A DNA stretch of 58,275 nucleotides from positions 1-58,275 of the IMG/VR virus record IMGVR_UViG_3300046697_000236; one strand, given 5' to 3'. The stretch's first letter is position 1; every line of letters starts with the position of its first letter. The translations under genes were made by a program, and so were the position numbers. This stretch comes from a virus (lineage: Duplodnaviria; Caudoviricetes). A model generated the notes under the pieces. That model was not told the DNA's origin and did no database searches. It saw nothing but the letters and a program-made list of their open reading frames with translations. Below are positions 24,501-44,888 of this stretch, piece by piece.

Positions 24501-27500
24501 CTAAGGTCTTCGTCTCCATTTAATATACTATTGGCTGATTTCAGCTCTCCTTTTCTTGTCTTACTATTTTTGGCATATTCATTCGCAGACTGAATCCTAT
24601 CCATAACCCTGTTTTTTGTAGTCACAGGCACCGTGGCAGACTCCTTGCCCATTATCATTGATGGTTTTACATAGGTCAACGGCTTCTTGGTCAGTCTTGG
24701 ATGTTGAACAAACTCAGCAAATTCCTCATTGGTCATTGTGGTTGTTGCTCCATGTCCAACCCAGTCAATAGAATAATTCTCACGGTAGGCATGTTCAGCT
24801 GCAGCCTGATATTTAAATCCGATCATGGCTTTGTACTCGTCAAATTCTCCGGAAGGGTCAACCTGATCAATAATATAGGTGTTCTTTGAAGCTAAATCGG
24901 GACCAAGGAAAACATCAATATGTTCGCCGGTACGATCTTTCGTTCCAAGAATATACCCATAAGGATTCTTCATTTCGGTTTTCCATTCCCTGCCTTGGGG
25001 GTCGGTTCCGGTTCTGACTGATCCGCGCGGGTTCTCAATAGAAATAGTCAACCCATTAATGTTCATCTTGCCTTTCGGGTAGTTGCCTGCTTCGATCTGT
25101 GCCTTGGAAGGATTCATCTCTGTTTCCTTTTCGGCTTGATCTAATTTCTTTTGAAGTTTTACTTCTTCAGGTGTTTGAAATATTCGACCTGTTCTAGTCT
25201 CTTCTTCGCCTGTCCCTTTGATAGGTTCGGTGCTGATAGGTTCTTGCCCTTTTCCGATACTACCTTGTATCCCTGACTTGTTTTTACTAACATTTGATTC
25301 TGGTTTTAATTCATCATGTTTTCTTTCCTCTTGCCTTCTGCTATATTCTTCCGGATTTTCTTTTTTAAGTTTCTCCATTTCGGCATCCGCTTCCGCCCAA
25401 TCATTTTTTCGGGGAGTATTTCGAAACTCTTCAGCATCTTTGGCAATCTTCTCTCGCGGTTCAATATCAGCGGGAGAGCCAGCACCTTGTTCAACCGGGT
25501 GCTGTACTCCAGATACATTTTCCTGAACAGGAGTAGTAATCTGTCCGCCTTCGGGAGGTGAACCCTGGTTCCCCTGAGTTCCAACCTCTTTTTCTTTTGA
25601 TAATATTTGCCAACCTGGAGTCATTTTGTTTCCAGTATTAACTTTCTTTAGTTCTAATACGAAATCGTCACCAATTTGCTCATTTAACTTATCAATTGCA
25701 ACTTTAGCCTCCGAGAACGTCATCATTTGTGAAAGCGATTCCCCCTTATTTTGTGTAGGAGTGAAAGTTGCTGCATTCTTATCTTCATATTGCACAACTA
25801 CTGGTTGCGGTTGTGCCTGTACTTGTTGTTGCGCTTGCTGTTCGACTTGGTTCTGTGTGGCTTCATCAATGTTCGGAGGGATGATTTGATCGTAATCCTT
25901 AGGATCAATATCAATTGAATTCTGACCTTCTACTGCAATTTTAATCCTTCCGTTCTGAATCTTCCGTATTCTTCCTTCCCTGCCACCAGAGAGCTGTATC
26001 ATGTCGCCCGCCTGTAGTTTGTTTACATAAAATTCGGTTAATTGATCTTTGATTTTATCAACAGGATATGCTTGTTGCATGTTGGCAACTTCTTTTTGAA
26101 TATATTCATCTTTGGTGAACTCACTAACAGGTGTTAGTTTATCATTCAGAATCATTTTTTTCTTTCCCTCGATAGGGTCATATACTATAGATGTCTCGTC
26201 ATTTAATGCACTAATCACATGAACGGGATTGCCTTCTATGTCTGTAGCTGTCTTAACTGTACCGGTGGCCTTGTCAGCATTTTGATTATAATTATCATTG
26301 GCTTTTTGATTATATCTGTTATTCCATGCTGTTTTTTCCGCATCTTCGAGTCTTAGTTGTCCGTTCGCCAATGTTTCTTTTATCCGTGCAGCGTCTTCTT
26401 TGGTTATCCTAACCGTGTTATTTAACTGATCCATAGAAACTGACCCAATAGATCCATCACTATTCACTATCTGAACTGGGACGTTTCTTTTAACATTGGC
26501 TTGTTCGTCACCTTCAAGCGATTCCCATGTTTTCCCATATAGTTTTTGAGAAATATTATCAACAATTTTATTCATGTTGGGATTACCCAACACAGCAACA
26601 ACACTTCCATCATCGGTCCTTGTGCCAAGATTATACCCGAATTTGTCAAAGTTTTCCTGTATGTTTTTAGGGAAACCTTTCATTGCGCCAACACCACCCA
26701 TAAATCCACCCATCAGCATCATGGGAAGTGCACTCGTGGCGAATATTTTCCCATAGTTTTTCCAATCATCAATCTTACCTGTGGGTAGCTCGTTAATAAA
26801 TTTAGTCGATGCTGCTAGCCCCCCCATGGTCAGACCGGCATTAATGCCATTTTTCAGTGCGGCGTCAGCAATATTCTTAAGCATATTTGGTGCTTCGGGA
26901 GCTGATGTAAGAAATTTAGATATGGCATAATCTGCAATTTCGGGATCAAGCTTCATTAATTGTGTTGCCGCAAAATCAGAAAGATATTTTCCCTGCATGG
27001 ACTGGGCAAGCTTCCCTCCCCATTGGCTCATAAATATTTGATTTAGTGCCCCTGACATTAATACCGCCCCTCCTTTTAGATATGGATTAATGTCCTCCCC
27101 TGTTTGTTTCTGATAATCATCAAGATTCTTAAGCGTTCCGCCCATTTGGTCCGCGGTCATTGTTCCAATCATACCTTGAGTCAATGCCCGACCTACAGTT
27201 CCAGATATTCCACCTATACCTTCACCTACCCCACCAACCGCAAATAAAGCTATAGGAAGTATCTGTTTTACAGCCTCCGCCCATCCCGTTGTGTTTTCCC
27301 CCTGCTGCATCCACCGTGCTCCCGTTGTTTGCATTTTGTTGCCAAGGTCGTCTTGGTTTAACGTGGAAATTTGTCCAAGAACTTCGGGTGTTGTCTTATT
27401 AGTACTTGGCGTTTCTGCTGGCAGGAATAATCCTCCGCTCATTCCTCCAAGACTGCCGATATTTTCAGCTCCTGTCTTGTAATCAGGAGAAATCAGCTCA

Positions 27501-28369
27501 CCAATACCTTTATACAACTCCTTTTCGGACCGTAAGCGATTGTCTTCGGTCTTTAAATCCATGTAGGTTCTTTTGTTCCATGGATGATCAATATACTTTT
27601 GATCCTCATCAATCCCCTTCATTAATGCAGCTTCTTGTGGAGTACCTTTTAAAATAGACGATAAATTATTCAGCTCTTCTTTGGCTGATTCAAGATAATT
27701 TATCTTCTTATCCATGTCGTTAATAAACGAGCCATTAGTAATTGTCTGATTCTTATCTAACCAATTATTTGAAAATGCATTATGTTGATTTTCAACATCT
27801 TTCGATTTGTTAAAATAGTCCTCCGGATTGTCTCCCAAATCCTCAAATTTAACTCCTTGGGTTTCTAGTGTTTTTTTAAGACACTCAAGCTTAGCTTGAC
27901 CTGAAAGATTTTTTACTGCTTCACCTGCTCCATAAAGTATTGGTCCTACAGTACTTTTTCCAAAAGCTTCTACTCCCTGCAGGGGGGTTGTTAATGACTT
28001 GATTTCTTTGGGTTGTTTATACGAGGGATCCATCCATTCCGCTGCTTGCTCTGAGGCAATATTCGGGAGATTTGCGGCTTGATTAAATTCATTACCAACA
28101 ACATCTGATCTGTCTTTATTTGTTATTGCCCAAGAAGGAAGCTTATTCTCTATTTCAGGACCTGATGCACCTTGGTCTATTTGGCTATTTTGTTTATTTT
28201 CCCCAATGCTTGCCGAACCGCCAACTTCTTTTCCTTTGGGAGAATAACCGTATTCTTCATCAATAAGCTGGTCGTCTGTTTTTGGAACAGAAGTATCAGC
28301 CTCTGGGTCTTTAACCTGAGAATTGTATAAAGAATCAAACTGCGCGAGTTCTTCCGGAGTAAAAGGCAT
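15545..28369 (-). CDS. Giant polyvalent (probably ejected) protein with PPase-like, zincin peptidase, JAB/RadC and LPD38-like domains
   Basis: YGYILGT..GEHIDVFLGP (~24750-25120), HEVGMHYGLR (~23760), HNHPSG..PSGEDI (~19685), LPD38-like C-terminus. Confidence 0.75.
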   Translation of the reverse strand: MPFTPEELAQFDSLYNSQVKDPEADTSVPKTDDQLIDEEYGYSPKGKEVGGSASIGENKQNSQIDQGASGPEIENKLPSWAITNKDRSDVVGNEFNQAANLPNIASEQAAEWMDPSYKQPKEIKSLTTPLQGVEAFGKSTVGPILYGAGEAVKNLSGQAKLECLKKTLETQGVKFEDLGDNPEDYFNKSKDVENQHNAFSNNWLDKNQTITNGSFINDMDKKINYLESAKEELNNLSSILKGTPQEAALMKGIDEDQKYIDHPWNKRTYMDLKTEDNRLRSEKELYKGIGELISPDYKTGAENIGSLGGMSGGLFLPAETPSTNKTTPEVLGQISTLNQDDLGNKMQTTGARWMQQGENTTGWAEAVKQILPIALFAVGGVGEGIGGISGTVGRALTQGMIGTMTADQMGGTLKNLDDYQKQTGEDINPYLKGGAVLMSGALNQIFMSQWGGKLAQSMQGKYLSDFAATQLMKLDPEIADYAISKFLTSAPEAPNMLKNIADAALKNGINAGLTMGGLAASTKFINELPTGKIDDWKNYGKIFATSALPMMLMGGFMGGVGAMKGFPKNIQENFDKFGYNLGTRTDDGSVVAVLGNPNMNKIVDNISQKLYGKTWESLEGDEQANVKRNVPVQIVNSDGSIGSVSMDQLNNTVRITKEDAARIKETLANGQLRLEDAEKTAWNNRYNQKANDNYNQNADKATGTVKTATDIEGNPVHVISALNDETSIVYDPIEGKKKMILNDKLTPVSEFTKDEYIQKEVANMQQAYPVDKIKDQLTEFYVNKLQAGDMIQLSGGREGRIRKIQNGRIKIAVEGQNSIDIDPKDYDQIIPPNIDEATQNQVEQQAQQQVQAQPQPVVVQYEDKNAATFTPTQNKGESLSQMMTFSEAKVAIDKLNEQIGDDFVLELKKVNTGNKMTPGWQILSKEKEVGTQGNQGSPPEGGQITTPVQENVSGVQHPVEQGAGSPADIEPREKIAKDAEEFRNTPRKNDWAEADAEMEKLKKENPEEYSRRQEERKHDELKPESNVSKNKSGIQGSIGKGQEPISTEPIKGTGEEETRTGRIFQTPEEVKLQKKLDQAEKETEMNPSKAQIEAGNYPKGKMNINGLTISIENPRGSVRTGTDPQGREWKTEMKNPYGYILGTKDRTGEHIDVFLGPDLASKNTYIIDQVDPSGEFDEYKAMIGFKYQAAAEHAYRENYSIDWVGHGATTTMTNEEFAEFVQHPRLTKKPLTYVKPSMIMGKESATVPVTTKNRVMDRIQSANEYAKNSKTRKGELKSANSILNGDEDLRNKYEITTDTDGDSFLIDKYSRKPVRRDVVKTARTEIESHPSLKEYDDPKFVEFVNTLLTDPRGKFWGVSNVGGEQATRDITKGKKSVASNKALDELKRQFDGNTIRAEKRNIPVDEWMDSMGDLNALSDISPNLIEDIEVPFKNEEEEIVPSKTFIDPKPTDNEVENITSMFNALDQFSENRPEILVHSFEDRLFKPNTSYSGGYFHGIRTAEFITDKIINSKERKDLGLSVSEYSKYLYVHEVGMHYGLRGILPEADIKQLCEKVFDYAENNDKAAFDRLKRLYPKAEKWQLGEEYLTHIAEKMHMEGELNFTKPEAKAWIQFLRNLRETIRKIFGKDIPLAYEDLKKIVHAAFNYHLTNSETTFKNEDINKTTEEDQPDLFSSVPGRDDNGLEAMGNGMAESGRSTIQNGNRLSEGGRPGIQESENTNVSPMVDNNKIEKKGILVSDQRRIKEAEANIQNLKDKIKQIARDKQAKINEIANRTQTQQSLAGFEGKKAVQQSMFDVNPDIDIENIKRILDPFEADKARVEAEIIRNHKLIEGIKRTAGDQWVLFKVEEIGTPIFHRGTEIHKIENQFSLKNEDFQDDNIYVSRGFISALKRGSIPTDDTTSEFHHYFVKDAERGFKAKKIYFKDQSLFKNESTEVFYSNTLRAIDKIQQEKATSEQWMAMLLKNGAKQSEMDWMGLPEFLKENPKLTKSDLTKFVNENKVELKEVVKEQAKVSQNDLDRINELTELRQKRRFTPEESKEFNTINDRLQIGSTDNTKFKGYVLPGGKNYKEWLLTMPSKPMTFEEYKNDSARNGVVFGSEERAKESYSEYLKEPGTDISKKENFKSSHWDEPNVVAHIRSQEFDEPDGTKSLVKEETQSDWQQKGRKEGFNSDESKAIRKKLHDEWTTVENEMIPLQKKSREGTELTQKETARLFELEKRDKELAEENKKLGLNPAPDMPFKNTEQITGLAFKRMLRYAAENGFDRICWPTGEQQAERYDLSKQVDSIHYDPLIKQLSARKGTQQVLKEQGVVPEKIADYIGKDAANKLLSSEINGAGNYELVGDDIKTQAPGMVGYYDKIEPSWIVKYIKPMGGVVGKHTLPNGVTLHSVEMTPAMLETGLGEQSMFKNEEESTLPEEKEQEVKPLPTFMQPVGRWEHPLDKVTNPMGGIQYLHPRETILNSIQPYHYKINAGLTGSTFLGNLNQAIEPTTLDKYPTLKGTQVAIYIRADFTQPGGWFDRGIRFGKPQLFIKAKSQEQASLMLSEGIKYLMQEVDNGNMSDPQPTGFEKLGFGGLNQIEKKHAGTGLYFVAHKNAGQLQYRLFKGTDPSKTILPDWDKKLPISIYDNLLKTAQDNPIAHKFLPNIIALKNSNFGQIYNNLSHFSDDSTVNEILREAGIKGWKRTEGDDTEYVVPDNSDLSIDHVQLLEPNVEYSQKDDIFVQVLNDAVNKLQDSDNINKSYGSKSFLQEYFQKAIDEAVMESKPKNTMGAGKQLSFDFVGRYNIPDQSSTEIPENHIIQGFAESLHISFAGQVIKFPRDIAQLFSLQRSPYIEKGHVVFVDKSGKIIANHSETLGIPSATSLGSKIDDTHDDNFIQIARMAKELNADVYLLHNHPSGNHLPSGEDIRATKNIAAQLTSGSEFKGHIIIDHNKFTIIYANGEFEEKEYKEPVDKLILPTPKVNDVILMTQFAKRLLTEKQLPSAIIMLNSQLKVAGYIPLLNSDITLLINEINEHVKNAGLYAAKHYAIVHDGSIKTTSLLKEQRSLSDGLIDIIDTKINQSYNSVIFQSPVQIRPVIKGYRLGEPEQRYLSEGIEKAVSIFGLTKNIRNAGFILPDGRMLNFVKDGRRLEHINIAKAFADFEAKPLEDQSHDKYDEARTYLERFIHDGAIRISAGDGMVEMNQHPTDEQLKLIGEALGDYRSRIFIDVHHDNGQTNSIEIPTAKGAEDIISEIKSKLNEPVEKKNYVSPVNAFFKNEEDPDQLMNEYLKDHMGNRRYLSIEEAIREAVQDTMLPVKKFMFDVVRAGGKITDDMDVWAKANSAASIMMSKDKELKTDFIEPFLDIAMKTAHEAGVDEQKLQEYMRAKDAIGRNKFKRIQNKDTEPKVYAGSIGNNPLTDDFAQRIINDLESKVDKKTIEKFWDQWRDLTDKNIDMNVEFGMLSISDGQKIKASWKDYVPQRGWKDDQSELFDYQNTQMGGAFNGLQKAKGRESQSADPIAQMINMAQCTIAYGVKNTYNQSMLHFVEANQLTKEGKPLLKGIVEPREVYYIKTKDEDGNESIEETYEKPKAELLKSGRAALKLFAEHKRLRPAEVAKQHEVPVMINGNKVRLVFGNEKMGSLVEVANALNKNNIQTISLAKLLDAPSKFLGRTTGWLSRSATGWNLAFQIPNLLRDLQYAWQANALFNNQGWAYAKNMGRALATIKDSFGKHFDPSTNPDHALYKLYTDNGGPTGFVNAQKISAIEKDLANVYKRYTGTNGILDKIGQSSALRWSKETFEKLSSFSEQTARFATFVTSIEKGRSVLTAIKDAKDVTSNFDTKGTLGKILGANYMFFNPSIQGADHALRMSGVGHEYDFPYTNEKGEYEEGKSNKQRNQRRKAMGVDALGWMVVGYFTAWVNSTIGNIDPVDGKPYYEKISPYVKHNNMIIPTMNEGHHVSIPIGFYFRNWYGLGAGLYEIVSGQTELGTGIGQALNGFTNAFAPVDVGGFVDRKGDFSCRPLIPGYGMGIHDLWSNEDYAQHTITREPFSQALEKVLPSSSLGKENVNPLIKGMTDFSFYVAGGNPNKHTLVNQRSELRGIQENVWKIADWNPSKVEYFLQYYTGGLGQFFNQLYKTTTHAVAAGTNIVSGKDAPFEKAGFEINDIPIFNRFYRNTYGDADMQEFNKLREENAAAKQNYSISTPAEIANYMSHPETARLYLRYKFMDNIEKHERKVSKLENKVDESNKDLITADETQENKIQLKKERADRIHNYLQMIKEADDAADNELKKHKP

Positions 28370-35284: not shown

Positions 35285-36121
35285 TTACATTGGTGAATAA
35301 ACAGACTGCCGGGATTTATCATCTAGAGGATTATAAACTTGGCTGATGTCCTGGTTGTGGTAATAATGCAAAATACTTTTAATTGATCTGTGTCCGGTCA
35401 TCTGCATTGTCTTTGGCAAACTTGCGTTATCAACCAACTTTGTAATGTATTGATGTCTGAAGCTGTGAGGGGTTATTTTCCTGCCGATCTGCGTTTCGGC
35501 TTCATGGAGTACATTTCTTATGCTTGTCTCAGAATATTGGCCTCCATTTGGATTTTCAAAAAGATACTCTTTTGGATTAAACCTTTTAAGATATGCCAAG
35601 ATATATTTTTTCGCTACCTCATGAATCTGAACATCCCGGTTAATTCCATGCTTTAAGGTGTGAATAAAGATTTTGTCATGGATTAAGTCTACTTGAGATA
35701 ATTTGATATTGAGTAATTCCGATATTCTTATGCCAGTCGAAAATAGAAGTATTGTAAAAGTTTTATGTTTCAGATTACTGATTGATTTCATTACAGATAC
35801 AAATTCCTCATAGGTCATTACTTGGTGAAATTTCTTTTCAGACTTAATTGGAACAAACCAATTCATTTTGTTTGGCTGTTTCAATACTCGTTCATAAAGA
35901 ATTTTGGCTGCACTGCAAATCACATTATAATAGGAATCTGAATACCGTTCCCGGAATCCCGAAAAGTATCGTTTCAAATCAAGTTCAGACATTCTATAAA
36001 CTCGCTCGTTCTCAGAAAGGAATTTATTCTTTACTGATTTGTAGTTTTCTTTTGTTATTTCCGACAGCGGCATGAGTCCTAATTCTATGGCATACCTTTT
36101 ATTTAACTCTGACAATTCCAT
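35285..36121 (-). CDS. Tyrosine recombinase; integron-integrase-like (cassette recombinase)
   Basis: GIRISE (R), TLKHG (K), HSFRH, GHRS, HYYH and C-terminal NPLD; adjacent to attI-like site and cassette array. Confidence 0.9.
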   Translation of the reverse strand: MELSELNKRYAIELGLMPLSEITKENYKSVKNKFLSENERVYRMSELDLKRYFSGFRERYSDSYYNVICSAAKILYERVLKQPNKMNWFVPIKSEKKFHQVMTYEEFVSVMKSISNLKHKTFTILLFSTGIRISELLNIKLSQVDLIHDKIFIHTLKHGINRDVQIHEVAKKYILAYLKRFNPKEYLFENPNGGQYSETSIRNVLHEAETQIGRKITPHSFRHQYITKLVDNASLPKTMQMTGHRSIKSILHYYHNQDISQVYNPLDDKSRQSVYSPM

Positions 36122-36147: not shown

Positions 36148-36181
36148 TTACCTTTATTGTAATTAATATATGTTATGTGGC
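36148..36181 (+). other. attI-like site; crossover G/TT at 36172/36173
   Basis: AT-rich aattaatatatGTTATGTGGC 51 bp from the integrase start; no hairpin to its left; core complementary to GCCACATAAC at 36339. Confidence 0.75.
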
Positions 36182-36328
36182 ATTAGGCTTCGGTGCATTC
36201 ATTTCTCGCACCAATTCCATTATCTTCTCCATAACTTTAACAACATATTTTTCACTACATTCGGTTTCTATTTTTACACCAGCCCGAACCAATGGTGCTT
36301 CAATTGTAATTTTATATTTATTGTTCAT
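36173..36328 (-). CDS. Cassette 1 hypothetical protein (51 aa)
   Basis: MNNKYKIT...; stop TAA is the TTA of the recombination core. Confidence 0.65.
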   Translation of the reverse strand: MNNKYKITIEAPLVRAGVKIETECSEKYVVKVMEKIMELVREMNAPKPNAT

Positions 36329-36338
36329 AATAATTAAC

Positions 36339-36463
36339 GCCACATAACAACGTGTATAAAACATTGCCCTTCGTGGTCTTTTTTTAGTTTATATTAATTT
36401 TATAATTCTGTTCATTCTATTAAGTTCTGTGTTGGCAACGTTTCATACACGCAGCCGTTAGAG
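36339..36463 (+). repeat. attC-like site 1
   Basis: GCCACATAAC-cgtgtataaaacattgcc...ggcaacgtttcatacacg-cagcc-GTTAGAG. Confidence 0.85.
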
Positions 36464-36540
36464 TTCAATCGGATTGCTCGCACTAAGCCCTCCCGCTGCA
36501 ATCCGAACGAGAAAGCAAAATTAAAATAAATGCCACCCCA

Positions 36541-36873
36541 CTAAAAATAATTAACCTCGTAACTTACTTTCATTCCTTCATCAAAAGAATATAGAGGCGA
36601 AGGAAATTCAAACGTAACAATACGTTCTCCTTCAATGGTATCGTTATCTACATACCATATTTCTTTGTCTGGATATTTTTCGCATATAATACGTTTGAAT
36701 CTCCTTTTGCTAAGATCATTTAATAAATATCCATATCCTTTTTTGATAAGTCGATCTTTAATTATTTCTTCTTTTTTCGCCTCTATATCTGAGGCCTGTT
36801 TCATCAATAATTCATTTAATGAGCGTTGTTTATCACCCATCTCCGAAAATAATGATTCTAAATTTTTATCCAT
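36541..36873 (-). CDS. Cassette 2 hypothetical protein (110 aa)
   Basis: ATG 36873 preceded by GGGAGGT. Confidence 0.7.
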   Translation of the reverse strand: MDKNLESLFSEMGDKQRSLNELLMKQASDIEAKKEEIIKDRLIKKGYGYLLNDLSKRRFKRIICEKYPDKEIWYVDNDTIEGERIVTFEFPSPLYSFDEGMKVSYEVNYF

Positions 36874-36971
36874 ATTACCTCCCAAATTTATTTTAATTAA
36901 GCATCTTTTCTCTTTGAACTCTAACGATCAGTAGCAACAGCCCATCTACATAGTACCCACGCAATCCGACT

Positions 36972-37076
36972 GACTCTAACAAGACCTATCAGCGATATAT
37001 GCGCTGTACTTCGGGGCTGTTTCAGCTTTACTTTATGCGAAGCGCATAAACCGCTGATAGCTCCTGATCGTTAGTC
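36972..37076 (+). repeat. attC-like site 2
   Basis: gactcTAAC-ctatcagcgatatatgcgct...agcgcataaaccgctgatag-ctcctgatc-GTTAGTC. Confidence 0.8.
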
Positions 37077-37200
37077 GCAAACCGCTTGCACCCCAATGAT
37101 GCCCGAAGCGGTCATCCCCTTTAACACACACGGGCGAACAAAACAATGAAATAAAATAAAATTAGTTTTACCACCACACATCGGATTGTACCAATCCGTG

Positions 37201-37230
37201 AAAATAAGGGCTGCTATCATACAGCCCCTA
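37201..37230 (-). terminator. Intrinsic terminator-like hairpin inside cassette 3
   Basis: GGGCTG-tatgatag-CAGCCC-TTATTTT on the minus strand just after the cassette 3 gene. Confidence 0.55.
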
Positions 37231-37245
37231 TCAATATTACCTTAA

Positions 37246-37461
37246 TCAATCCTTAAGGTCAACCAATATCCAACTATCAGCCGATACCAGTTCACTCCTG
37301 CCATTATTCATGCAGGTTTTTTTTCCATTTAATTGAGCAACTGAATCTATTAAATCTAATAGATTCCCTGATAATTGATCAAGTTTTTCTGTCTTGTCGA
37401 TAAGGGTTTTTACTCTGTTTTCAAGAAAATACACCCTGTTTTCTAATTTTTCTTTTGTCAT
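37246..37461 (-). CDS. Cassette 3 hypothetical coiled-coil protein (71 aa)
   Basis: MTKEKLENRV...; A-rich upstream region. Confidence 0.65.
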   Translation of the reverse strand: MTKEKLENRVYFLENRVKTLIDKTEKLDQLSGNLLDLIDSVAQLNGKKTCMNNGRSELVSADSWILVDLKD

Positions 37462-37638
37462 ACTTTTAATTGTTTTAAATTTATAATAAAGATAATAAAA
37501 AAATAAAAATTTCCTTCCCAAAAAACTAATTTAATTTATTTCAAAGTTTCTTTGTTCTTTTGCGACTAATGGCCGAGGCTGAGAGGCGTAATGTAATACG
37601 GCTTCTTTCTGTATCATATTACCCTTGCAAGTGGTCAG

Positions 37639-37743
37639 ACGACTAACAGGTCTGTAAACGTAATCGAGCGTATTACAAAAGCCTCAAACTCTCGTCGGGC
37701 AAAACAAAACGCCCGACTACGTTTACAGCCTCGGCCATTGGGA
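37639..37743 (+). repeat. attC-like site 3 (non-canonical A/TT core)
   Basis: acgacTAAC-ctgtaaacgtaatcgagcgt...acgcccgactacgtttacag-cctcggcc-ATTGGGA. Confidence 0.8.
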
Positions 37744-37880
37744 AGAATTATGCTCGCACGGCTATCCGCACAAAGCATCCACCTTCCACCACACTCACCA
37801 AAAGCAAATTCTTCCCAATGAGTCGGGCATAAGGCCGTCCGCACATTCCATCTATGACTTGCGCCTCCCCGCAAAACTCT

Positions 37881-38129
37881 CACCAACAAGTCATAAATGA
37901 AATAAAATCTATGACTTTTTTCGCCACCACTCACATGATCTATATGAACGTAGTACCCTAAATAACCCAGTACTATTATTAATATAATTTAATACGCAAA
38001 CACCCTTCTGATATTTGACAACTCTGTCATAATAATCACAGTTTGTACATTTTTTTTCCATATTTATATAATTTACATTTCGCACAAAAGTCATAAATTT
38101 TACATTCACTTATGCCCGACTCGTTACCT
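37881..38129 (+). repeat. attC-like site 4 with a gene in its loop
   Basis: cacCAAC-aagtcataaatgaaataaaatctatgac...gtcataaattttacattcacttatg-cccgactc-GTTACCT. Confidence 0.7.
37909..38061 (-). CDS. Cassette 4 small Cys-rich protein (50 aa)
   Basis: MEKKCTNCDYY...C...CEWW, possible zinc-binding. Confidence 0.6.
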   Translation of the reverse strand: MEKKCTNCDYYDRVVKYQKGVCVLNYINNSTGLFRVLRSYRSCEWWRKKS

Positions 38130-38666
38130 GCAATGCCTTTCAACACTTGCGATAGTGTCGTGAATAGCCCCGCCATGTGAAAATAATGCAATTCGCTCAA
38201 CATTAAAGCCTCTATTAACTCCCATTGTGTTACTGTGGTAGCCGAAGGTTATTACAAGTCCATTTGGTTTTAGTATTCTCGGTAGTTCATCTTTAAGTTG
38301 GCGAAACGGTGAGGCTTTAATACCTTTGTACATTTCCATACTTTTACGATATGCGTATGGCGGGTCTAACAAAACCGTAGCAAACCTATCTCCATTCCAC
38401 TCTTTTACAAATTGTAGCGCATCTTTGTTATAGTCTGCCAACGCTTCAATATCAAGGTCGTTTCTTATTTCATCTATATTTAGCTTTGTTTTGCCAGCAA
38501 ATAAATTAAGCGTCTTGCCTTCGCACGTTTTTTCAGTCCACTCCCTAATAGGTTTGATACTAAACGTCCATCTACTTAATGGGCATTTTATGTAATCGAA
38601 CAACGGCACAGCAGGTAACACGGTATATAGTGCATTGCTTCCGTTCTCTGTTTTTAGTTTATCCAT
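38124..38666 (-). CDS. Cassette 5 DNA adenine methyltransferase-like protein
   Basis: LNLFAG (motif I) and LDPPY (motif IV); starts in the attC loop and stops in the core. Confidence 0.75.
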   Translation of the reverse strand: MDKLKTENGSNALYTVLPAVPLFDYIKCPLSRWTFSIKPIREWTEKTCEGKTLNLFAGKTKLNIDEIRNDLDIEALADYNKDALQFVKEWNGDRFATVLLDPPYAYRKSMEMYKGIKASPFRQLKDELPRILKPNGLVITFGYHSNTMGVNRGFNVERIALFSHGGAIHDTIASVERHCR

Positions 38667-38732
38667 AATTTTAACTTTTGTATTTCAATTTTAGTTTTGT
38701 GATGCAACGCACCATATACCCAATCGTTATAC
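38611..38732 (+). repeat. attC-like site 5
   Basis: GCAGGTAAC-ggtatatagtgcattgc...gcaacgcaccatatacc-caatc-GTTATAC. Confidence 0.85.
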
Positions 38733-38817
38733 CGCAATCCTTCCCAGCTCACACAATCCACCCCCAAAGTATTGCGGTATAACGGGCGAGCGCATTCGCA
38801 CACCGCTGTGAAGGACA

Positions 38818-39071
38818 GCGGATAACACCACATAAAGCAAATTTTATAATCTTAAATTTCACGCACAATCTGTTTTTCATCTATTTCTATCATTGAATCA
38901 TCATCAAAATCATCTCCATCGTAATACCATGAATTAAACATCCAATGCGCAACGTGCCAAAATGGTTTATCTGACCATTTATAACCTAATACCCAATAAT
39001 AACCATCTTCTCTTTTCATATATCCAAAATTTAAAATTATAAAACTTGCCTTATGCGCTCGCCCGTTATGT
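38818..39071 (+). repeat. attC-like site 6 with a gene in its loop
   Basis: gcggaTAAC-cataaagcaattttataat...attataaaacttgccttatg-cgctcgccc-GTTATGT. Confidence 0.75.
38852..39019 (-). CDS. Cassette 6 small Trp-rich acidic protein (55 aa)
   Basis: MKREDGYYWV...; the longer track start crosses the cassette boundary. Confidence 0.65.
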   Translation of the reverse strand: MKREDGYYWVLGYKWSDKPFWHVAHWMFNSWYYDGDDFDDDSMIEIDEKQIVREI

Positions 39072-39137
39072 TCAATTAAATATTTTAAAAGTTTTTTGCC
39101 CACGCTCTCTTTCAATTTTTTCAAAATTGTGAAAAGG

Positions 39138-39716
39138 TTAGTTAAACCATCTAATTACTGTTTCGCCTTTAAATCCTTTCTCCCAAACATACCACGCATA
39201 GCAATTAGCAGAAGGTGTATTGTATTTCACAAAGTCTGCATTTTTAGCTAACAGCAATCTACTGCTGCTCACATAAACATATTTCGGAGGGTATGCTTTC
39301 AAAAATGGTTTTCGCCTTTGTCCTTCTAAAAATTGTATTCGCATAAGCATTACTACTTTACTTCCATCATCTACTAATCTCAATGCGTGTTCGCAAAATT
39401 GTTTCGCATCTCCGTATGGTGGGTTGGTAAGTATATCTCCATTCCAAGTTTCTAATTGCTCATACAAGTTTATTCCTGTTTCGCCATATCCTCTATCAAT
39501 CAAATCACTTGCCCTGCCAAGCAATCCTTTTGCTTCTAACACCTTTGCTAAATGCCCTTCACCACAGGCACACTCCCAAACATTTTTCAATTCTATTTCG
39601 GGCAAAAATATTTCTAATGCTTTCGGGTCGGTTGCGTAAAAATCATTTTCTTCTCTTTCTCCGTCAGCGTGAGCAGATGCTCCTAATGTTGTAAAATCTC
39701 CTTTTTTCATAATCAT
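39138..39716 (-). CDS. Cassette 7 N6-adenine DNA methyltransferase
   Basis: DFYATD, WECACGEG and LTNPPY motifs. Confidence 0.8.
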   Translation of the reverse strand: MIMKKGDFTTLGASAHADGEREENDFYATDPKALEIFLPEIELKNVWECACGEGHLAKVLEAKGLLGRASDLIDRGYGETGINLYEQLETWNGDILTNPPYGDAKQFCEHALRLVDDGSKVVMLMRIQFLEGQRRKPFLKAYPPKYVYVSSSRLLLAKNADFVKYNTPSANCYAWYVWEKGFKGETVIRWFN

Positions 39717-39806
39717 TGTTTTAAGTTGTAAATAAATCCCACCGCACCCCTCTCAAAAAAACTTTTAAAATATTTAACTGCCCTTCGCTCGAAAACCCTA
39801 CGCACC

Positions 39807-39880
39807 AACATAACACCGTATATACGCTATTCTCCCACCCACAAGCAACGCACAACAGCGCATATACTTTTTCGTTAGGT
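39807..39880 (+). repeat. attC-like site 7
   Basis: AACATAAC-gtatatacgct...agcgcatatac-T-run-c-GTTAGGT. Confidence 0.8.
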
Positions 39881-39886
39881 GCAATA

Positions 39887-40786
39887 TTAAAAAATAGCCC
39901 CACCGCACATCGGCTTTTTCAAAGCCGTTTGGATAGCTACATCGTAAGTTACACCATTGTTTTTATAATTCATTCCTATTTCAAATGCTTTTGGTTGTGT
40001 TTCTTTTAATCTTATAAATCTATCGTCTTTGTGGCAACCAAATCCACAAATCATACAGCCTGTCTGTGTTTCTCCTTTGTCGTAAATTTCACAATACGGT
40101 ATTTTGTTTTGTTTTATAAAGTTCCATTTATCTTCATCAGTCCAAATACTTATCGGATAACTTGCAGGTCTATTCACTTCAAAAGCATTGCATCCAGTAG
40201 TTAAGTATTTTTGTAGTCTTAATCTGCTTTCATTTACAGAAGTTCCGATAATTGGAAATAGCTTATTTTCTTTTTCATACTTGTATGCAGGTCGCTTCTT
40301 TAAGTGGTAACAGCATTTTTCTGAAATATCAAATGGTGTATTTATTAAGTGTTGCCATTTATTTGATATTTTGCCCTGATTTCCTTTTCTGCCATTCAAT
40401 CTAAGTTCTAAAAGTTTTTCACTTTTTGTTGTTCTTGCTTCCCTTATGTATTGTGCCTGTTCTTTTGATATTAAGGGAAATCCACATTTTTCAATAACTG
40501 ATTTTAAATTCATTTCAGGCTGTATTTTCACACAGTCAATTTCTTTTATGAACTTATAAATCTCTGGAAATTCATTTGTAGTATTGAAAAATACTGCTTT
40601 AATATCAGGTTTAATAATCCTTGCTAAATGCAGTAATATTGTGCTGTCTTTACCTCCACTAAAAGAAACATAAGCATTTCCATTTGAGTAAGTCAAAGCA
40701 TTTTCAATAGTAAAAAGTGAATGGTCAATCTTTTGGTCAAGTGTCCAATTCAATCTTTCGTTTAATATTTCTCTTGTAATTATCAT
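39887..40786 (-). CDS. Cassette 8 PAPS reductase family protein
   Basis: SFSGGKDS PP-loop, SEKCC and TGCMICGFG Cys motifs. Confidence 0.85.
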   Translation of the reverse strand: MIITREILNERLNWTLDQKIDHSLFTIENALTYSNGNAYVSFSGGKDSTILLHLARIIKPDIKAVFFNTTNEFPEIYKFIKEIDCVKIQPEMNLKSVIEKCGFPLISKEQAQYIREARTTKSEKLLELRLNGRKGNQGKISNKWQHLINTPFDISEKCCYHLKKRPAYKYEKENKLFPIIGTSVNESRLRLQKYLTTGCNAFEVNRPASYPISIWTDEDKWNFIKQNKIPYCEIYDKGETQTGCMICGFGCHKDDRFIRLKETQPKAFEIGMNYKNNGVTYDVAIQTALKKPMCGGAIF

Positions 40787-40835
40787 AATGTGAAAATAAA
40801 AATTTCCCACGCTTCGCTATTTTTTAAGTATTAAT

Positions 40836-42097
40836 GCAAAAGAAATCCCCTATCCCTTTAGGGTAGCGGGATGAATTTTGCCTGTTTTTGTTTGTTATTA
40901 TGGTTATTAATCGTATATTTGCATTGTGAGAGCGTATAAATTCAGAATATATACTACAAGAAAACAAGAGGAGTTGCTGCAATTCACTCTTAATCATTGC
41001 CGTTGGCTTTATAACACAGCGCTTCAACAGCGAAGGGATGTTTATAGGAGTACGGGCAAAAGCATTGGTTATTCCATCCAGCAAAACGAAATGCCTCTTT
41101 TGAAAGATCAGTTTCCCGAATACAGACAGATTCATTCTCAGGTCTTGCAGAGCGTTCTTAAACGTGTTGATCTGGCCTACCAAAGTTTCTTTCGCAGGAT
41201 TAAGCAAAAGGGAGAAAAAGCCGGATTTCCTCGCTTTCACGGCAAAGAACATTACGATAGCTTCACCTACCCCCAAAGTGGTTTTTCGTTTACTAAAGGC
41301 AAAAACAGGATTAATCTTTCCAAGATAGGACTGGTAAAAATTAAACTTCATAGACAAATTCCTCTTGGCACTCAAATAAAAACCTGCACAATTAAAAGAG
41401 AGAGCGATAAATGGTATGCCATTTTCTCCTGTATGCTTTCTAATCCAGCCCCAAAAAAGAAAGCCGTTACAAATGTTATCGGTATTGATCTGGGGTTGAC
41501 CGATTTTGCCGTATTGAGTAATGGAGAAGAAATTGCCAATCCCAAATATCTGAAACAGTCTGAGGATAAACTTAAAGAAATTCAAAGCAAGTACTCTAAA
41601 GGTAAAAGCAAGAAGGTTAAACGACAGATTGGTAATCTTTATCATAAAATCACTAATCAGCGCAACGATTTTCAGCACAAACTTTCTTATAAATTGGTAA
41701 ATACTTTTGATCTTATTGCTTATGAAGATTTGAAAATAAAACAAATGATTGAAGATAATAAATTCAATCTTCAAAAACATATTTCCGATGCCGCTTGGGG
41801 TAAATTTATTTTTATGCTTAAATACAAAGCTGAAAACGCTGGTAAGTATTGCATAGCAGTAAATCCAAAAGGCACAACGCAAAGGTGCAGTCATTGTAAC
41901 TCTGTTGTGAAAAAAACGCTCTACGAACGCTCTCACAAGTGTCCTGCTTGCGGTTTTGAAACAACAAGGGACATCAATGCTGCACTGAACATTGAAAAGC
42001 TGGGTATCAGCTTGGTTGATAAATCTGTATGTTCTGATATAGTTCATCCTTTTTTGTTTTCCGAAGCCGCTTCGCCTTTAGGCAAGCGGTAGTTCAC
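40836..42097 (+). mobile_element. IS200/IS605-family element, TnpB only (IS1341-type), inserted in cassette 8
   Basis: Subterminal hairpins with ctttagg loops at both ends, right end ...ggtagTTCAC, upstream TTAAT; left boundary approximate. Confidence 0.8.
40926..42092 (+). CDS. tnpB: RNA-guided endonuclease TnpB
   Basis: AYKFRIY HTH, GIDLG / YEDL / RDINAALNI RuvC motifs, CSHC..CPAC zinc ribbon; TATATTTG promoter just upstream. Confidence 0.93.
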   Translation: MRAYKFRIYTTRKQEELLQFTLNHCRWLYNTALQQRRDVYRSTGKSIGYSIQQNEMPLLKDQFPEYRQIHSQVLQSVLKRVDLAYQSFFRRIKQKGEKAGFPRFHGKEHYDSFTYPQSGFSFTKGKNRINLSKIGLVKIKLHRQIPLGTQIKTCTIKRESDKWYAIFSCMLSNPAPKKKAVTNVIGIDLGLTDFAVLSNGEEIANPKYLKQSEDKLKEIQSKYSKGKSKKVKRQIGNLYHKITNQRNDFQHKLSYKLVNTFDLIAYEDLKIKQMIEDNKFNLQKHISDAAWGKFIFMLKYKAENAGKYCIAVNPKGTTQRCSHCNSVVKKTLYERSHKCPACGFETTRDINAALNIEKLGISLVDKSVCSDIVHPFLFSEAASPLGKR

Positions 42098-42103
42098 TAC
42101 AGA

Positions 42104-42234
42104 CACCTAACACGTGCTATAAGCAATAGCGGGTTCGCTGGTTATTTGAAGTTCTGTATCTCGTTCAATCATTTATTGTAATTTGAAAGTTTATCACTCG
42201 TATTCCGCTACTGCTCAGAGCACCACCGTTAGCA
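42104..42234 (+). repeat. attC-like site 8
   Basis: CACCTAAC-gtgctataagcaatagcgg...ccgctactgctcagagcac-cacc-GTTAGCA. Confidence 0.85.
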
Positions 42235-42240
42235 GTAATA

Positions 42241-43089
42241 CTACATTCCATCTCCGAATAAAGTTTTCTGCGTTAAATCTTTTTCTTTTCTTTTTTCTCC
42301 CGCCCTTTTTAAAATCAAATCAATATTACTTTGTTCTTTATCAATTAGTAGGTAGTTTCTATTTGTATCAATGCAAACAAGTCCAGTAGTTCCACTTCCT
42401 GCAAAGCAATCCACTATCAAATCACCTTCGTTGCTAAAACTTTTTACAAAAAACTCAACCAACTTTTCAGGGAATGTTGCTGAATGGTCGCTCTTTAAAG
42501 TAAATTGGTTGCTTACATTATTTACGTTTACAACATTTGAAGGTCTTGCAAATTCAAGGTTTCTTATATTGGTTGTGTTCATTCCTGTCATACCACTTCC
42601 GTTTTTTGGCGCACCACATTGTTTTCTGTATGTTCTTGCAATACTTTCTTCCTTCATTGGCGTTCCGCAAGCAATCGGGTTAAATGTTATTTGGTTTGGG
42701 TTTCCTTTTGTAAAGTGGTAAACAGGCTCAAAAGCGTTTTTAAACCTACCTTTCAAACTACCTGGAAATGCGTTTTTAGTCCAGCAATATTCTTCTACAA
42801 ATAAAAATCCAAGTTCCTTTTTTAGCATAATAACCAATTCAAAAACGTATAAACTTCTTTCTCCTTTATTGGTATGCGGTTTTATATTCAAAAAGAAACT
42901 ACCAGTTGGCTTTAAAACCCGTTTAACCTCAATCGCAATAGGTTTGAACCACTCTAAATATTTATCTTCTGCAATACCACCATAGGTATTTTTTCTCCTA
43001 TCTGCATAAGGTGGCGAAGTAAATACCATATCCACGCTATTGTCAGCAAGTTTTTTTAGTTCGTTTTCACTATATCCGTGTATTATCAT
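42241..43089 (-). CDS. Cassette 9 beta-class N4-C/N6-A DNA methyltransferase
   Basis: FTSPPY, HSATFP and DCFAGSGTTG motifs; start probably MIIHG. Confidence 0.88.
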   Translation of the reverse strand: MIIHGYSENELKKLADNSVDMVFTSPPYADRRKNTYGGIAEDKYLEWFKPIAIEVKRVLKPTGSFFLNIKPHTNKGERSLYVFELVIMLKKELGFLFVEEYCWTKNAFPGSLKGRFKNAFEPVYHFTKGNPNQITFNPIACGTPMKEESIARTYRKQCGAPKNGSGMTGMNTTNIRNLEFARPSNVVNVNNVSNQFTLKSDHSATFPEKLVEFFVKSFSNEGDLIVDCFAGSGTTGLVCIDTNRNYLLIDKEQSNIDLILKRAGEKRKEKDLTQKTLFGDGM

Positions 43090-43186
43090 ATTTTTAATTT
43101 TTTCAAAATTATTTTTGCCATCGCTCAAAAAAAGAAAAGAAAAAGGTTCGGTTCTTCGATTGAGCATTTGTGGTTTAAATCCGTAC

Positions 43187-43220
43187 TACTGCTAACATCG
43201 TGCTGAGAGGCGTAATGTAA
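43187..43220 (+). repeat. Left arm of attC-like site 9 (right arm not found)
   Basis: TACTGCTAAC is the reverse complement of GTTAGCAGTA at 42228. Confidence 0.6.
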
Positions 43221-43308
43221 AAACCAAGCAATGTTTTTATCTGTTTGCGTTTTAGAATTGTAACCAGTTATTTCTTTTTGTTTTGGTAATTTTTCTGTTG
43301 TTGTCATA

Positions 43309-43455: not shown

Positions 43456-43971
43456 CTATCGCTTAGATTTACCTTTGAATTCAATCTTCTGATTTTTTTC
43501 AACAAATTGTATTTCGCCGGATTGCAGTTGTTTTACGGTAGTATCAAAAGTACACGTATTGGCATATTGCTTCTGTTCCTTCCGATAAAAAAATGCCTTT
43601 CTTCCAATTTCGTCCCATTCTTTTTCTGTGGTAGTTCTATGATTCCACGCTATCATCCAGTCGGGTTCTTGATCCGCTTCTGCTTTTCTAAAAAACACCT
43701 TCTTAAAATTAACAATCAGTGTTTTGGAATTTAACTTATCTAATTCAATTGTTCCTCCGGCAATTTGAGCGAAAAATGTTACGAGCAAACCACGTCTATA
43801 GTTTCCGTAGCGGGATAAAACAAATTCCATAAATTCCGATAGCCATGTTGCGAAATGGGTTCCGTCTGGTTTTGCCTGCCCTATCGATACCATTGTTTTT
43901 GCCATAAGTTCCGCAATTATTTTTCTCAAGTCAATTTCTGGCAATTCTTTTATTTTTAAATTATTATCCAT
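43456..43971 (-). CDS. Hypothetical replication-associated protein
   Basis: Overlaps the end of the initiator-like gene. Confidence 0.5.
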   Translation of the reverse strand: MDNNLKIKELPEIDLRKIIAELMAKTMVSIGQAKPDGTHFATWLSEFMEFVLSRYGNYRRGLLVTFFAQIAGGTIELDKLNSKTLIVNFKKVFFRKAEADQEPDWMIAWNHRTTTEKEWDEIGRKAFFYRKEQKQYANTCTFDTTVKQLQSGEIQFVEKNQKIEFKGKSKR

Positions 43972-44725
43972 TTTGATAGTCTTTAATGAAATCCAAAGGA
44001 CTTCCGTTATTAAACTTACTTTCTGGTAGCGTGTATTTTAATTCTATTTCCCATGAACGCTGATGTAGAAATGTTTTTAAATGTTGCCACCCAGCAATAA
44101 AGGCCTTTTTTTCTTTTGCTTCTTCGCGTATCTTTATTTGATTTTCAATAATAAACTTAAGCCTTGGTAAAATCTCATTCCAATCTTTGTGTTTTTTAAA
44201 CTCAGCGAATTCTGTTTCTAATCCCCTCTTAGTACCTGGATATAATTTTCTAAACTCGTCAAAAATTAAAATACTATCTTGCTCTATTGTTTCTTGTTTA
44301 TTTGTTTCTTGTTTATTTGTTTCTTGTTTGTCTATATAGACCTTGCTTTGACCAATGCTTTGCCCGGTGCTTTGTCCTTGCTTTGCCCGGTGCTTAATGA
44401 ATGCTTTGTCCAGTGCTTTGTCTTTTTTTGGCATAGCATAAGTTATACTTATTATATTGGCAGAATATTGATTTTGAGACTTTTGAACCATTTTAAAGAA
44501 TCCCCAACTTATAAGATCATTAAAATACTTAATATAAGTCTGATGCTTCTTTATTCCTATTGCCTCCATAACCATCTGTGACGGAAACCCGAATTTCTCT
44601 TTATCTCCAAGTCTATTACAATGCTCTAATGCAAAAAAGTAAATAGCCGTATGACCTGGACTTATTTTCTCAGGGTTTTCAAAGCTGAAATTAAACCAAT
44701 TTCGTGATAAATCAAAAGAGTTCAT
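43964..44725 (-). CDS. Putative replication initiator (lambda O-like layout)
   Basis: N-terminal wHTH-like region, repeat-rich linker, FDEFRKLYP C-terminal domain. Confidence 0.65.
   Translation of the reverse strand: MNSFDLSRNWFNFSFENPEKISPGHTAIYFFALEHCNRLGDKEKFGFPSQMVMEAIGIKKHQTYIKYFNDLISWGFFKMVQKSQNQYSANIISITYAMPKKDKALDKAFIKHRAKQGQSTGQSIGQSKVYIDKQETNKQETNKQETIEQDSILIFDEFRKLYPGTKRGLETEFAEFKKHKDWNEILPRLKFIIENQIKIREEAKEKKAFIAGWQHLKTFLHQRSWEIELKYTLPESKFNNGSPLDFIKDYQNG
44286..44422. repeat. Iteron-like repeats; putative replication origin
   Basis: Three 15-bp tttgtttcttgttta-type units plus seven TGCTTTG-type boxes at 11-12 bp spacing (44344-44420). Confidence 0.65.
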
Positions 44726-44739
44726 ATTATAAATAATAA

Positions 44740-44888
44740 ACTCCACTAAAGAAAAAGCCATGTAGGAAAGCGTCAACAAACCTTTCATGGCTATTCGATA
44801 GTGGAGTATTTTGTTTAAGATTATTAAACTTATTCATTTGACACTTTTATGTTGACAAACATACAATTTTTATTTCAATCCACAAATT
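44740..44888 (-). promoter_or_regulatory. Promoter and structured leader of the replication gene
   Basis: TATGTTTG at 44856-44863; long hairpin actccacta/tagtggagt 44740-44807. Confidence 0.55.

Follow-up and report, generated by a model that had tools for sequence, protein, structure and literature searches.

The viral record IMGVR_UViG_3300046697_000236 contains a stretch of about 7 kb in which genes for DNA methyltransferases and small proteins are separated by hairpins resembling the attC sites of integrons. Our conclusion is that this is probably an integron-like array of cassettes, each made of a hairpin and the gene downstream of it, which are exchanged at TAAC cores and in which hairpin loops carry translation starts. 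The window, i.e. the whole stretch of DNA that was analysed, is the complete 58,275-bp record, the ends of which are classed as direct terminal repeats by IMG/VR. The host of the phage probably belongs to the Bacteroidota.

The array (36171-43196) is tiled without gaps by 17 abutting inverted-repeat units, with arms matching at 8/8 to 17/18 positions. All of its genes are carried by the minus strand, from about 43.2 kb to 36.1 kb, and its cargo comprises three DNA methyltransferases (42241-43167, 39138-39716 and 38124-38666), a PAPS-reductase-like gene (39887-40810) and small open reading frames (ORFs). Two types of unit follow each other in turn: 'cargo' units, which bear the genes and have GTTAnnnnn/nnnnnTAAC repeats at their flanks, and hairpin units. 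The arms of the cargo units contain the cores and those of the hairpin units fall between cores. The core-bearing units bracket the three methyltransferases, the PAPS-reductase gene together with an insertion sequence (IS), and three small genes, and two further ones, H3 and H5, have no gene. The bracketing repeat is specific to each cassette. In the sense of the genes, a cassette would thus read: spacer, hairpin arm, loop, hairpin arm, spacer, GTTAnnnnn, gene, nnnnnTAAC.

The limits of the exchanged unit were deduced from the cassette of the methyltransferase gene 38124-38666 (minus strand), which encodes a protein of 180 residues (phrog_11619, E = 1.7e-41). Its cargo unit (38123-38619, minus strand) is bracketed by the plus-strand repeat GTTACCTGC at 38123-38131 and GCAGGTAAC at 38611-38619 (9/9). 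We took 80 loci encoding relatives of this methyltransferase from viral contigs. Many of these have the identical 9-nt repeat at both positions; L081 has a compensatory variant of it, and in L034 the pair is a different one, of 10 nt. Twenty of the 23 loci that align into the region of the stop codon end at 38121-38124, which is the TAAC core, and the sequences downstream of this break are of 17 different kinds, the window being counted. At the 5' boundary, homology spans the hairpin and ends at TAAC|G, with seven different upstream contexts. The presence of break points at both ends therefore indicated that the exchanged unit is the hairpin plus the downstream gene, bounded by TAAC on both sides; as judged from these alignments, a hairpin and the gene that follows it move together. 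Another three units of this composition were found repeatedly, each time behind other neighbours. Contigs from other peat samples, near-identical to the window over single cassettes, diverge at 38122, 39873/39876, 42108 and 42227/42230; this comparison rests on assembled contigs and shows alternative junctions, not their frequency.

The sites form a family defined by structure. Scanning 425 kb on both strands with the pattern TAAC-spacer-arm...arm-spacer-GTTA gave 127 matches, as against 23-30 in block shuffles. As a control, the surroundings of bacterial methyltransferase homologues, 248 kb in all, contained only two typical sites, both on short contigs of metagenome-assembled genomes. Spacers were of 4-7 and 0-4 nt in 44 of the 54 non-redundant sense-oriented sites, and the loops measured either 11-57 nt or 73-97 nt, typical sites (loops of 11-97 nt) being about 58-140 bp long. 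TAAC, GTTA and the G following TAAC were invariant among 25 aligned sites, and the stems showed covariation, with double changes in 12 of the 13 consensus pairs. Stems are 17-20 bp long with mismatches or bulges, apart from those of H1, H2, H4 and H6. These four hairpins of the window are atypical, with flush, perfect stems and loops of 124-275 nt. Four others (36351-36451, 38622-38720, 39818-39867 and 42114-42223) are typical: their stems are imperfect and their spacers measure 5-6 and 2-3 nt.

We considered the possibility that these structures were chance palindromes or transposon copies, akin to miniature inverted-repeat transposable elements (MITEs), unrelated to gene exchange. This would account for the presence of terminal inverted repeats and for nothing more. 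Exact 11-mer inverted-repeat seeds numbered 55 in the window, compared with 10.1 ± 4.9 in 20 shuffles, i.e. an enrichment of about five times, and the GC-rich long seeds were concentrated at 36.9-39.1 kb. Single-strand folds of the sense strand gave z = -7.9 (37555-38135) and z = -5.2 (38590-39085), with none of 100 shuffles as good. This enrichment, the covariation and the break points all speak against such an origin. Furthermore, the arm sequences are unique to each unit, the window hairpins comprise no repeated sequence family, and there are no direct target duplications. We hold this explanation to be hardly credible, and the specific readings as MITEs or as IS200/IS605 ends were rejected on the grounds of the unique arms and the lack of target duplications. 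Scans of the window against Rfam (gathering scores) and for tRNAs gave no match.

A further property of the cassettes is the complementarity of the boxes that bracket each gene. The variable 5 nt of GTTAnnnnn were fully complementary to those of the next nnnnnTAAC in 12 of 28 adjacent pairs as against 7 of 728 non-adjacent pairs, and complementary at 4 or more of the 5 positions in 18 of 28 and 44 of 728 pairs, respectively; the misses among adjacent pairs mostly corresponded to an undetected site in between. In all gene cassettes of the window, the complementarity of the bracketing boxes was between 8/8 and 14/15. Complementarity spanning a whole gene makes sense if the cassette is circular, with both boxes flanking the hairpin, which is the logic of integron attC sites. 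The gene-bracketing repeat (9-15 nt) would pair beside the stem solely in the excised circular cassette, and this pairing would complete an attC-like R''-L''...L'-R' site. These findings point to site-specific recombination of a folded single strand, and in keeping with this the hairpin of the sense strand is the more stable one in 20 of 25 sites (p = 2.5e-4). Phages would swap cassettes at TAAC cores, and the hairpin would be inherited with the downstream gene because the exchange falls at these cores.

Alternatively, the hairpins might act mainly in RNA, as 5' stem-loops setting the stability, processing or translation of the mRNA for each cistron of a long early transcript. Shuffling would then be a by-product of recombination at short shared cores, much as with the promoter/stem-loop (PeSL) motifs of T4-type phages, which offer a precedent. 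Under this explanation one would expect each gene to have a hairpin at its 5' end and an ATG within the loop, as is seen, and a sense strand that folds better than its complement, as is the case in the 20 of 25 sites mentioned; there are also recurrent G.U-compatible positions in the consensus, and no recombinase was found in nine of nine related records. Yet it leaves unexplained why a cassette-specific complementarity of 9-15 nt should extend across 0.1-1.7 kb, with the excess of perfect pairs noted above, and why 20 of 23 loci should break within a 4-nt core. Moreover, hairpin sequences differ between cassettes and are not conserved from one to the next, therefore offering little homology to recombine on, and about one third of the stems, on inspection of the arms, carry C.A and not G.U on the sense strand. 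We consider a predominant role in RNA to be unlikely.

The original prediction, made from the sequence of the window, had proposed that the loops supply translation starts. The relatives supported this proposal. In sites with loops of 70-100 nt, the first ATG lay in the loop in 25 of 32 non-redundant cases, compared with 2 of 32 in the antisense control, and no such start was found in 10 sites with loops shorter than 70 nt. The criterion was that the first ATG of the frame be in the loop and open an ORF that continues across the distal arm and the GTTA core and has no fewer than 50 codons. About 19 distinct leaders of 14-30 codons were observed, with all three frames in use. The frame that reads the core as TAx occurred solely with GTTAT cores (5/5) and never with GTTAG, which would be read as TAG. 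One leader showed a 12-nt indel, which therefore keeps the frame, and one (..STDTAIDYSTCYAQP) forms in-frame fusions with a different protein in each of L025 and L010. The mini-ORF announced for the loop of the site called attC8 (42104-42241; arms 42114-42132/42205-42223, 16/19; loop of 72 nt) is indeed present (42106-42171, minus strand, 21 codons); it is homologous to the STDTAIDYSTCYAQP leader and is ended by the TAG of the GTTAG core. We infer from this sequence evidence that loop ATGs are translated.

The methyltransferase cassette illustrates this arrangement. Its hairpin (38622-38720; arms 38622-38641/38701-38720, 17/20) has the ATG 38664-38666 in the loop, with the arm and core encoding ..NALYTVLPAV, both of which had been predicted. 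The conserved core of the protein begins at residue 23 (FDYIKCPL), and the leader that precedes it (residues 1-22) is specified by the loop of the hairpin together with its distal arm and the GTTA core box. This methyltransferase has 1401 close homologues, the short (non-cassette) forms of which start just before FDY. Common to the long (cassette) forms is VLPAVP, the translation of the core box. The loop ATG is thus supported as the likely start of the gene, a GTG or TTG just 3' of the hairpin being also possible. If the hairpin is the gene's own 5' end, the loop would be free to carry a start and 14-30 leader codons, and a loop-borne start with a leader reading through arm and core explains the position of the methyltransferase start at 38666.

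Two hairpins, H4 (37820-38122) and H6 (38779-39069), go further in that whole ORFs (37909-38061 and 38852-39019, both on the minus strand) lie between their arms. This had been noticed at first sight and was borne out by the repeat coordinates and the folds; the proposed size of about 250 bp applies to the loops, the whole sites being about 290-310 bp. H4 has flush, perfect arms (37820-37833/38109-38122, 14/14), a loop of 275 nt and inner repeats at 37903-37919/38086-38102 (16/17, flanking the ORF) and at 37845-37861/37887-37903 (15/17). The arms of H6 are likewise flush and perfect (38784-38795/39053-39064, 12/12), or 17/17 when the shared cores are included (38779-38795/39053-39069). Its loop of 257 nt contains an inner 29-nt repeat (38831-38859/39027-39055, 26/29) that hugs the ORF, and a small hairpin (38803-38809/38815-38821).

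The two enclosed ORFs differ in their conservation. The ORF of H6 encodes a 55-residue protein of a conserved small phage family (MKRExGYYWV...W.IA.W...EIDE..I.R). An exhaustive HMMER search yielded 33 cluster representatives at E ≤ 1e-3, six of them at E ≤ 1e-10, mostly of 52-60 residues and with alignments starting at residue 1, i.e. at the same methionine. R3, W9, W21 and I46 are invariant across 26 aligned sequences, and phrog_13655 is matched over the full length (E = 0.0033). Since homologues align from residue 1 and share invariant residues, the H6 gene and its start at 39019 are real. The ORF of H4 (50 codons, with the motif CxxC...C...C) has no detectable relative and gave no PHROG or Pfam match; it can be counted as an open reading frame and no more.

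No loci of the H6 family were found in viral contigs, and four were recovered from metagenome contigs. None of these four has GC-rich flanking repeats, indicating that the gene and the hairpin can occur apart. The jumbo phage LR756500.1 has an array of small cassettes, one of which carries a homologue of the H6 gene as ordinary cargo, between GTTATGGTT and AACCATAAC. This uncultured phage (462 kb, 24.5% GC; L007 20300-24200, and L002) contains an array of genes encoding 54-122 residues, each bracketed by a 14-23-nt GTTA.../...TAAC repeat with hairpins in between, and one of its hairpin arms is nearly identical to an arm in the viral locus L009.

The original prediction also suggested that loops might be where new cargo is acquired. 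Accordingly, H4 and H6 could once have been compact hairpins, into the loop of which a small gene module, consisting of an ORF with its own repeat and a small hairpin, was later inserted. In line with this, the loops of H4 and H6 share the same internal order (repeat-flanked ORF, then small hairpin), and L032 offers a third long-loop case behind its methyltransferase, where a loop of 315 nt encloses an ORF of 65 residues. GAATG is present at both inner junctions of H4, a 5-nt repeat that could be due to chance. Furthermore, members of the H6 family are found elsewhere without a hairpin (L003-L005), so that the gene did move into its present setting. This insertion scenario is made quite improbable by several facts. 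Gene-enclosing long loops were seen in just three of about 60 sites, and the H6 homologue of LR756500.1 is ordinary cargo; H6 minus the insert would be a stem with almost no loop. Exact searches with the arms in viral contigs disclosed no empty-site version of H4 or H6, the matches being single and attributable to chance: one in a GC-rich coding region and, separately, 49 loci with one unpaired match each. If the hairpin and the downstream gene are one cassette, then the loop ORFs need no new route of acquisition, which is the simpler reading.

Units with and without cores alternate throughout the array. In this succession H4 and H6 hold hairpin positions, while H3 and H5, the cargo units paired with them, are empty. 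As the alternation has no interruption, the idea that H4 and H6 are inverted or parity-shifted ordinary cassettes was rejected. Within the hairpin-plus-downstream-gene reading they would be an atypical subclass, in which inner stems hugging the ORF would keep the outer arms close despite the length of the loop.

A tyrosine recombinase (35285-36121, minus strand; PF00589, 83.5 bits) is encoded next to the array, at a distance of 50 bp from its first core. If the plus strand is taken as 'top', the layout is the classical one, with a divergent recombinase gene separated by 50 bp from the first G|TTA. The protein is below the NCBIfam cut-offs for XerA, XerC/D and IntI, scoring 66.8 bits with the IntI model TIGR02249 (cut-off, 265). 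By these scores it is a Xer-like recombinase and not an integron integrase, and Cury et al. (2016) judged such neighbours of attC sites not to be IntI. The anatomy of the array, its break points, the covariation, the in-frame leaders and the H6 gene can be read from the DNA itself, and we infer the single-strand mechanism, the recombining enzyme and the origin of H4 and H6. A small gene lies beside the recombinase (36173-36364, minus strand), with candidate starts at ATG 36364, in the distal arm of the hairpin 36351-36451, and at ATG 36328, downstream of the core.

Several observations weigh against an integron-like array of this type. The cores fit the TAAC/GTTA part only of the RYYYAAC/GTTRRRY consensus, the other positions of which are often unmatched. 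With about 290-310 bp overall, H4 and H6 are longer than attC sites, which range from 57 to 141 bp. For the ORF of H4, no word-sharing homologue was found among the near-length proteins searched, and the best tblastn hit had E = 3. Residues 209-246 of IntI4, which form the IntI insertion, are unmatched in the window recombinase; no relatives of this enzyme were found in the viral collection, and a PF00589 recombinase is absent from all nine related viral records, one of which is estimated to be 100% complete. No excision joints were found in the peat-sample contigs, in which some stretches, including 38804-39069, are without cover. Finally, the sense-strand bias and the 5' position of the hairpin would also fit a role in mRNA, and the sites that we found in the Polaribacter phage P12002L, discussed below, may not include the one tested with IntI1.

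A bolder version of the cassette model, which we put forward tentatively, is that of a phage-specific hairpin-cassette system distinct from classical integrons. Its folded sense strand might be cut at TAA|C, its modules of leader hairpin and gene, each with a start codon of its own in the loop, might move between unrelated Bacteroidota phages (from 58 kb to 462 kb) with no integrase in cis, and its loops might be able to grow into a cargo compartment.

The remaining parts of the array are as follows. H3 (37736-37820) is a gene-less unit of the cargo type with arms matching 14/14, 57 nt between them, and the variant cores CATTG/CAATG, which are also used by H4 and by H2 (hairpin 37566-37741); an H3-like sequence adjoins the 39876 core in a contig (loose end) from another sample. 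H5 (38725-38784) is of the same gene-less type, with arms matching 17/18 and 24 nt between them. H7 (39807-39881; arms 39818-39828/39857-39867, 10/11; loop of 28 nt) is a typical attC-like site that separates the PAPS-reductase-like gene from the second methyltransferase. The distal end of the array, called attC9 (43183-43222), was thought to contain a loop-initiated ORF. A 60-codon ORF (43125-43307) is present there, out of frame with the following methyltransferase, and the site itself, with a core and a single arm, is a half-site because the partner arm is absent after 43197, as found by inspection of the sequence. About 20 nt (GCTGAGAGGCGTAATGTAA) are common to the left part of H2 (37578-37598) and to this half-site (43203-43222), which suggests that the distal site may be a truncated copy of an H2-like hairpin.

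The PAPS-reductase cassette also holds an IS605-type element with TnpB only (40822-42097, plus strand), 6 nt from the 5' repeat. It was identified by the Pfam families OrfB_IS605 and Cas12f1-like_TNB, and its ends were deduced from run X3, in which it forms a contig of 1300 nt and loose ends are seen. In that run the IS contig has a depth of 36, compared with 1-4 for its flanks, and the flanking sequence differs; the element is therefore abundant elsewhere in that sample.

Outside the array, 15545-28369 (minus strand) is one ORF of 4274 codons, exceptionally long for a 58-kb phage genome, and the ORF 43964-44788 contains 15-nt and 23-nt tandem repeats (44277-44432) that code for a repeated QETNK-like motif. 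Among close phage records, the sole match was one of 92% to the methyltransferase region of a Flavobacterium phage. The homologues of the methyltransferase in cultured genomes (L142-L169) are nearly all from Mucilaginibacter, share 58-69% identity and are without hairpin sites. These homologues, and the fact that the runs holding the window come from peat, hint, weakly, at a host among the Sphingobacteriales.

The textbook integron cassette is a promoterless ORF followed by its own attC. Widespread phage cassettes would reverse this order, the hairpin preceding the gene, carrying its start codon and being read through as protein. Their cargo consists of methyltransferases and other likely counter-defence or accessory genes. 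If the sites recombine, each cassette would be a self-contained expression unit for any phage, the sequence of a recombination site would be constrained both as a hairpin and as a coding sequence, and current integron finders would mis-assign the borders of phage cassettes. The gene-bracketing repeat provides a simple way of finding such cassettes, and the nature of the enzyme that moves them in phages devoid of integrase becomes a directly testable question.

The closest system is the cluster of attC sites lacking an integron integrase (CALIN) in the Polaribacter phage P12002L, which comprises methyltransferase cassettes and one site of which is recombined by IntI1 (Qi et al. 2023, PMC9892861). 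Like the window, this phage has arrays of methyltransferase and small genes and TAAC/GTTA hairpin sites, with no integron integrase nearby. We found sites of the same build, with loops of 9-21 nt, between its methyltransferase genes, and one 11-nt loop is identical to that of locus L008. Unlike in the window, the loops are short and the starts are downstream of the core. The portions of PMC9892861 at our disposal give no account of starts or genes in loops, of a gene-bracketing repeat or of a gene travelling together with the site. Starts or genes inside attC loops, or a hairpin tied to the downstream gene, were likewise not found in the literature searched, on which the supplements of that article may bear.

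The sequence of the aadA1 attC site of plasmid R100 shows, in gene sense, the same succession of ORF, ..TAAC, 5-nt spacer, imperfect inverted repeat, spacer and GTTA. As in our cassettes, the start of the aadA1 cassette complements its own ..TAAC box, and translation of the ORF stops within the first core or right at it. There are also differences: the second spacer is of 0-4 nt here and of 6 nt in aadA1, the loops are commonly of 73-97 nt as against 4 nt, and the complementary boxes have 8-15 nt, the canonical box usually having 7. The genes of the array occupy the strand corresponding to the canonical bottom strand. The canonical cassette keeps its attC downstream of the ORF, whereas here the hairpin goes with the next gene and the boundary is at the proximal TAAC. 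The crossover of canonical attC sites is at G|TT of the distal core, according to PMC9892861.

The label attC in the original prediction stands for a resemblance: several defining features were found, and two of those tested were absent. The second imperfect inverted repeat (L''/L') with unpaired spacers, conserved in structure and not in sequence, is present, as is the complementarity of the cassette start to its own proximal core box. Inheritance with the upstream ORF was not observed, the downstream hairpin being replaced in 17 contexts and the upstream hairpin kept behind 7, and the window recombinase had neither the additional domain of IntI nor scores above the IntI models.

The nearest known translation start inside an integron recombination site is that of ORF-11 in attI1, described in a review (PMC8876359). 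This short ORF (ORF-11/ORF-17) begins within the site, reads across the crossover point and is stopped by the TAG in the GTTAG core of the next cassette, which the mini-ORF of attC8 matches exactly. It belongs to attI, forms no fusion with the cargo and works through translational coupling, whereas most of the loop ORFs described here are fused in frame to the protein of their own cassette. Stem-loops flanking variable small genes are also known as the PeSL of T4-type phages, where they have been linked to modular shuffling (PMC2839356, PMC4122927). As described in the parts of these papers seen by us, PeSL are conserved promoter-terminator sequences; here the stems vary with each cassette, 4-nt cores are all that they have in common, and no conserved promoter and terminator are repeated at the cassette borders. 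Relative to the literature searched, the hairpin that belongs to the downstream gene, the starts and leaders encoded by loop and arm, and the occasional whole gene in a loop are apparently undescribed, but the system as such, a phage cassette array resembling integrons, is of a type already known in outline from phage CALINs.

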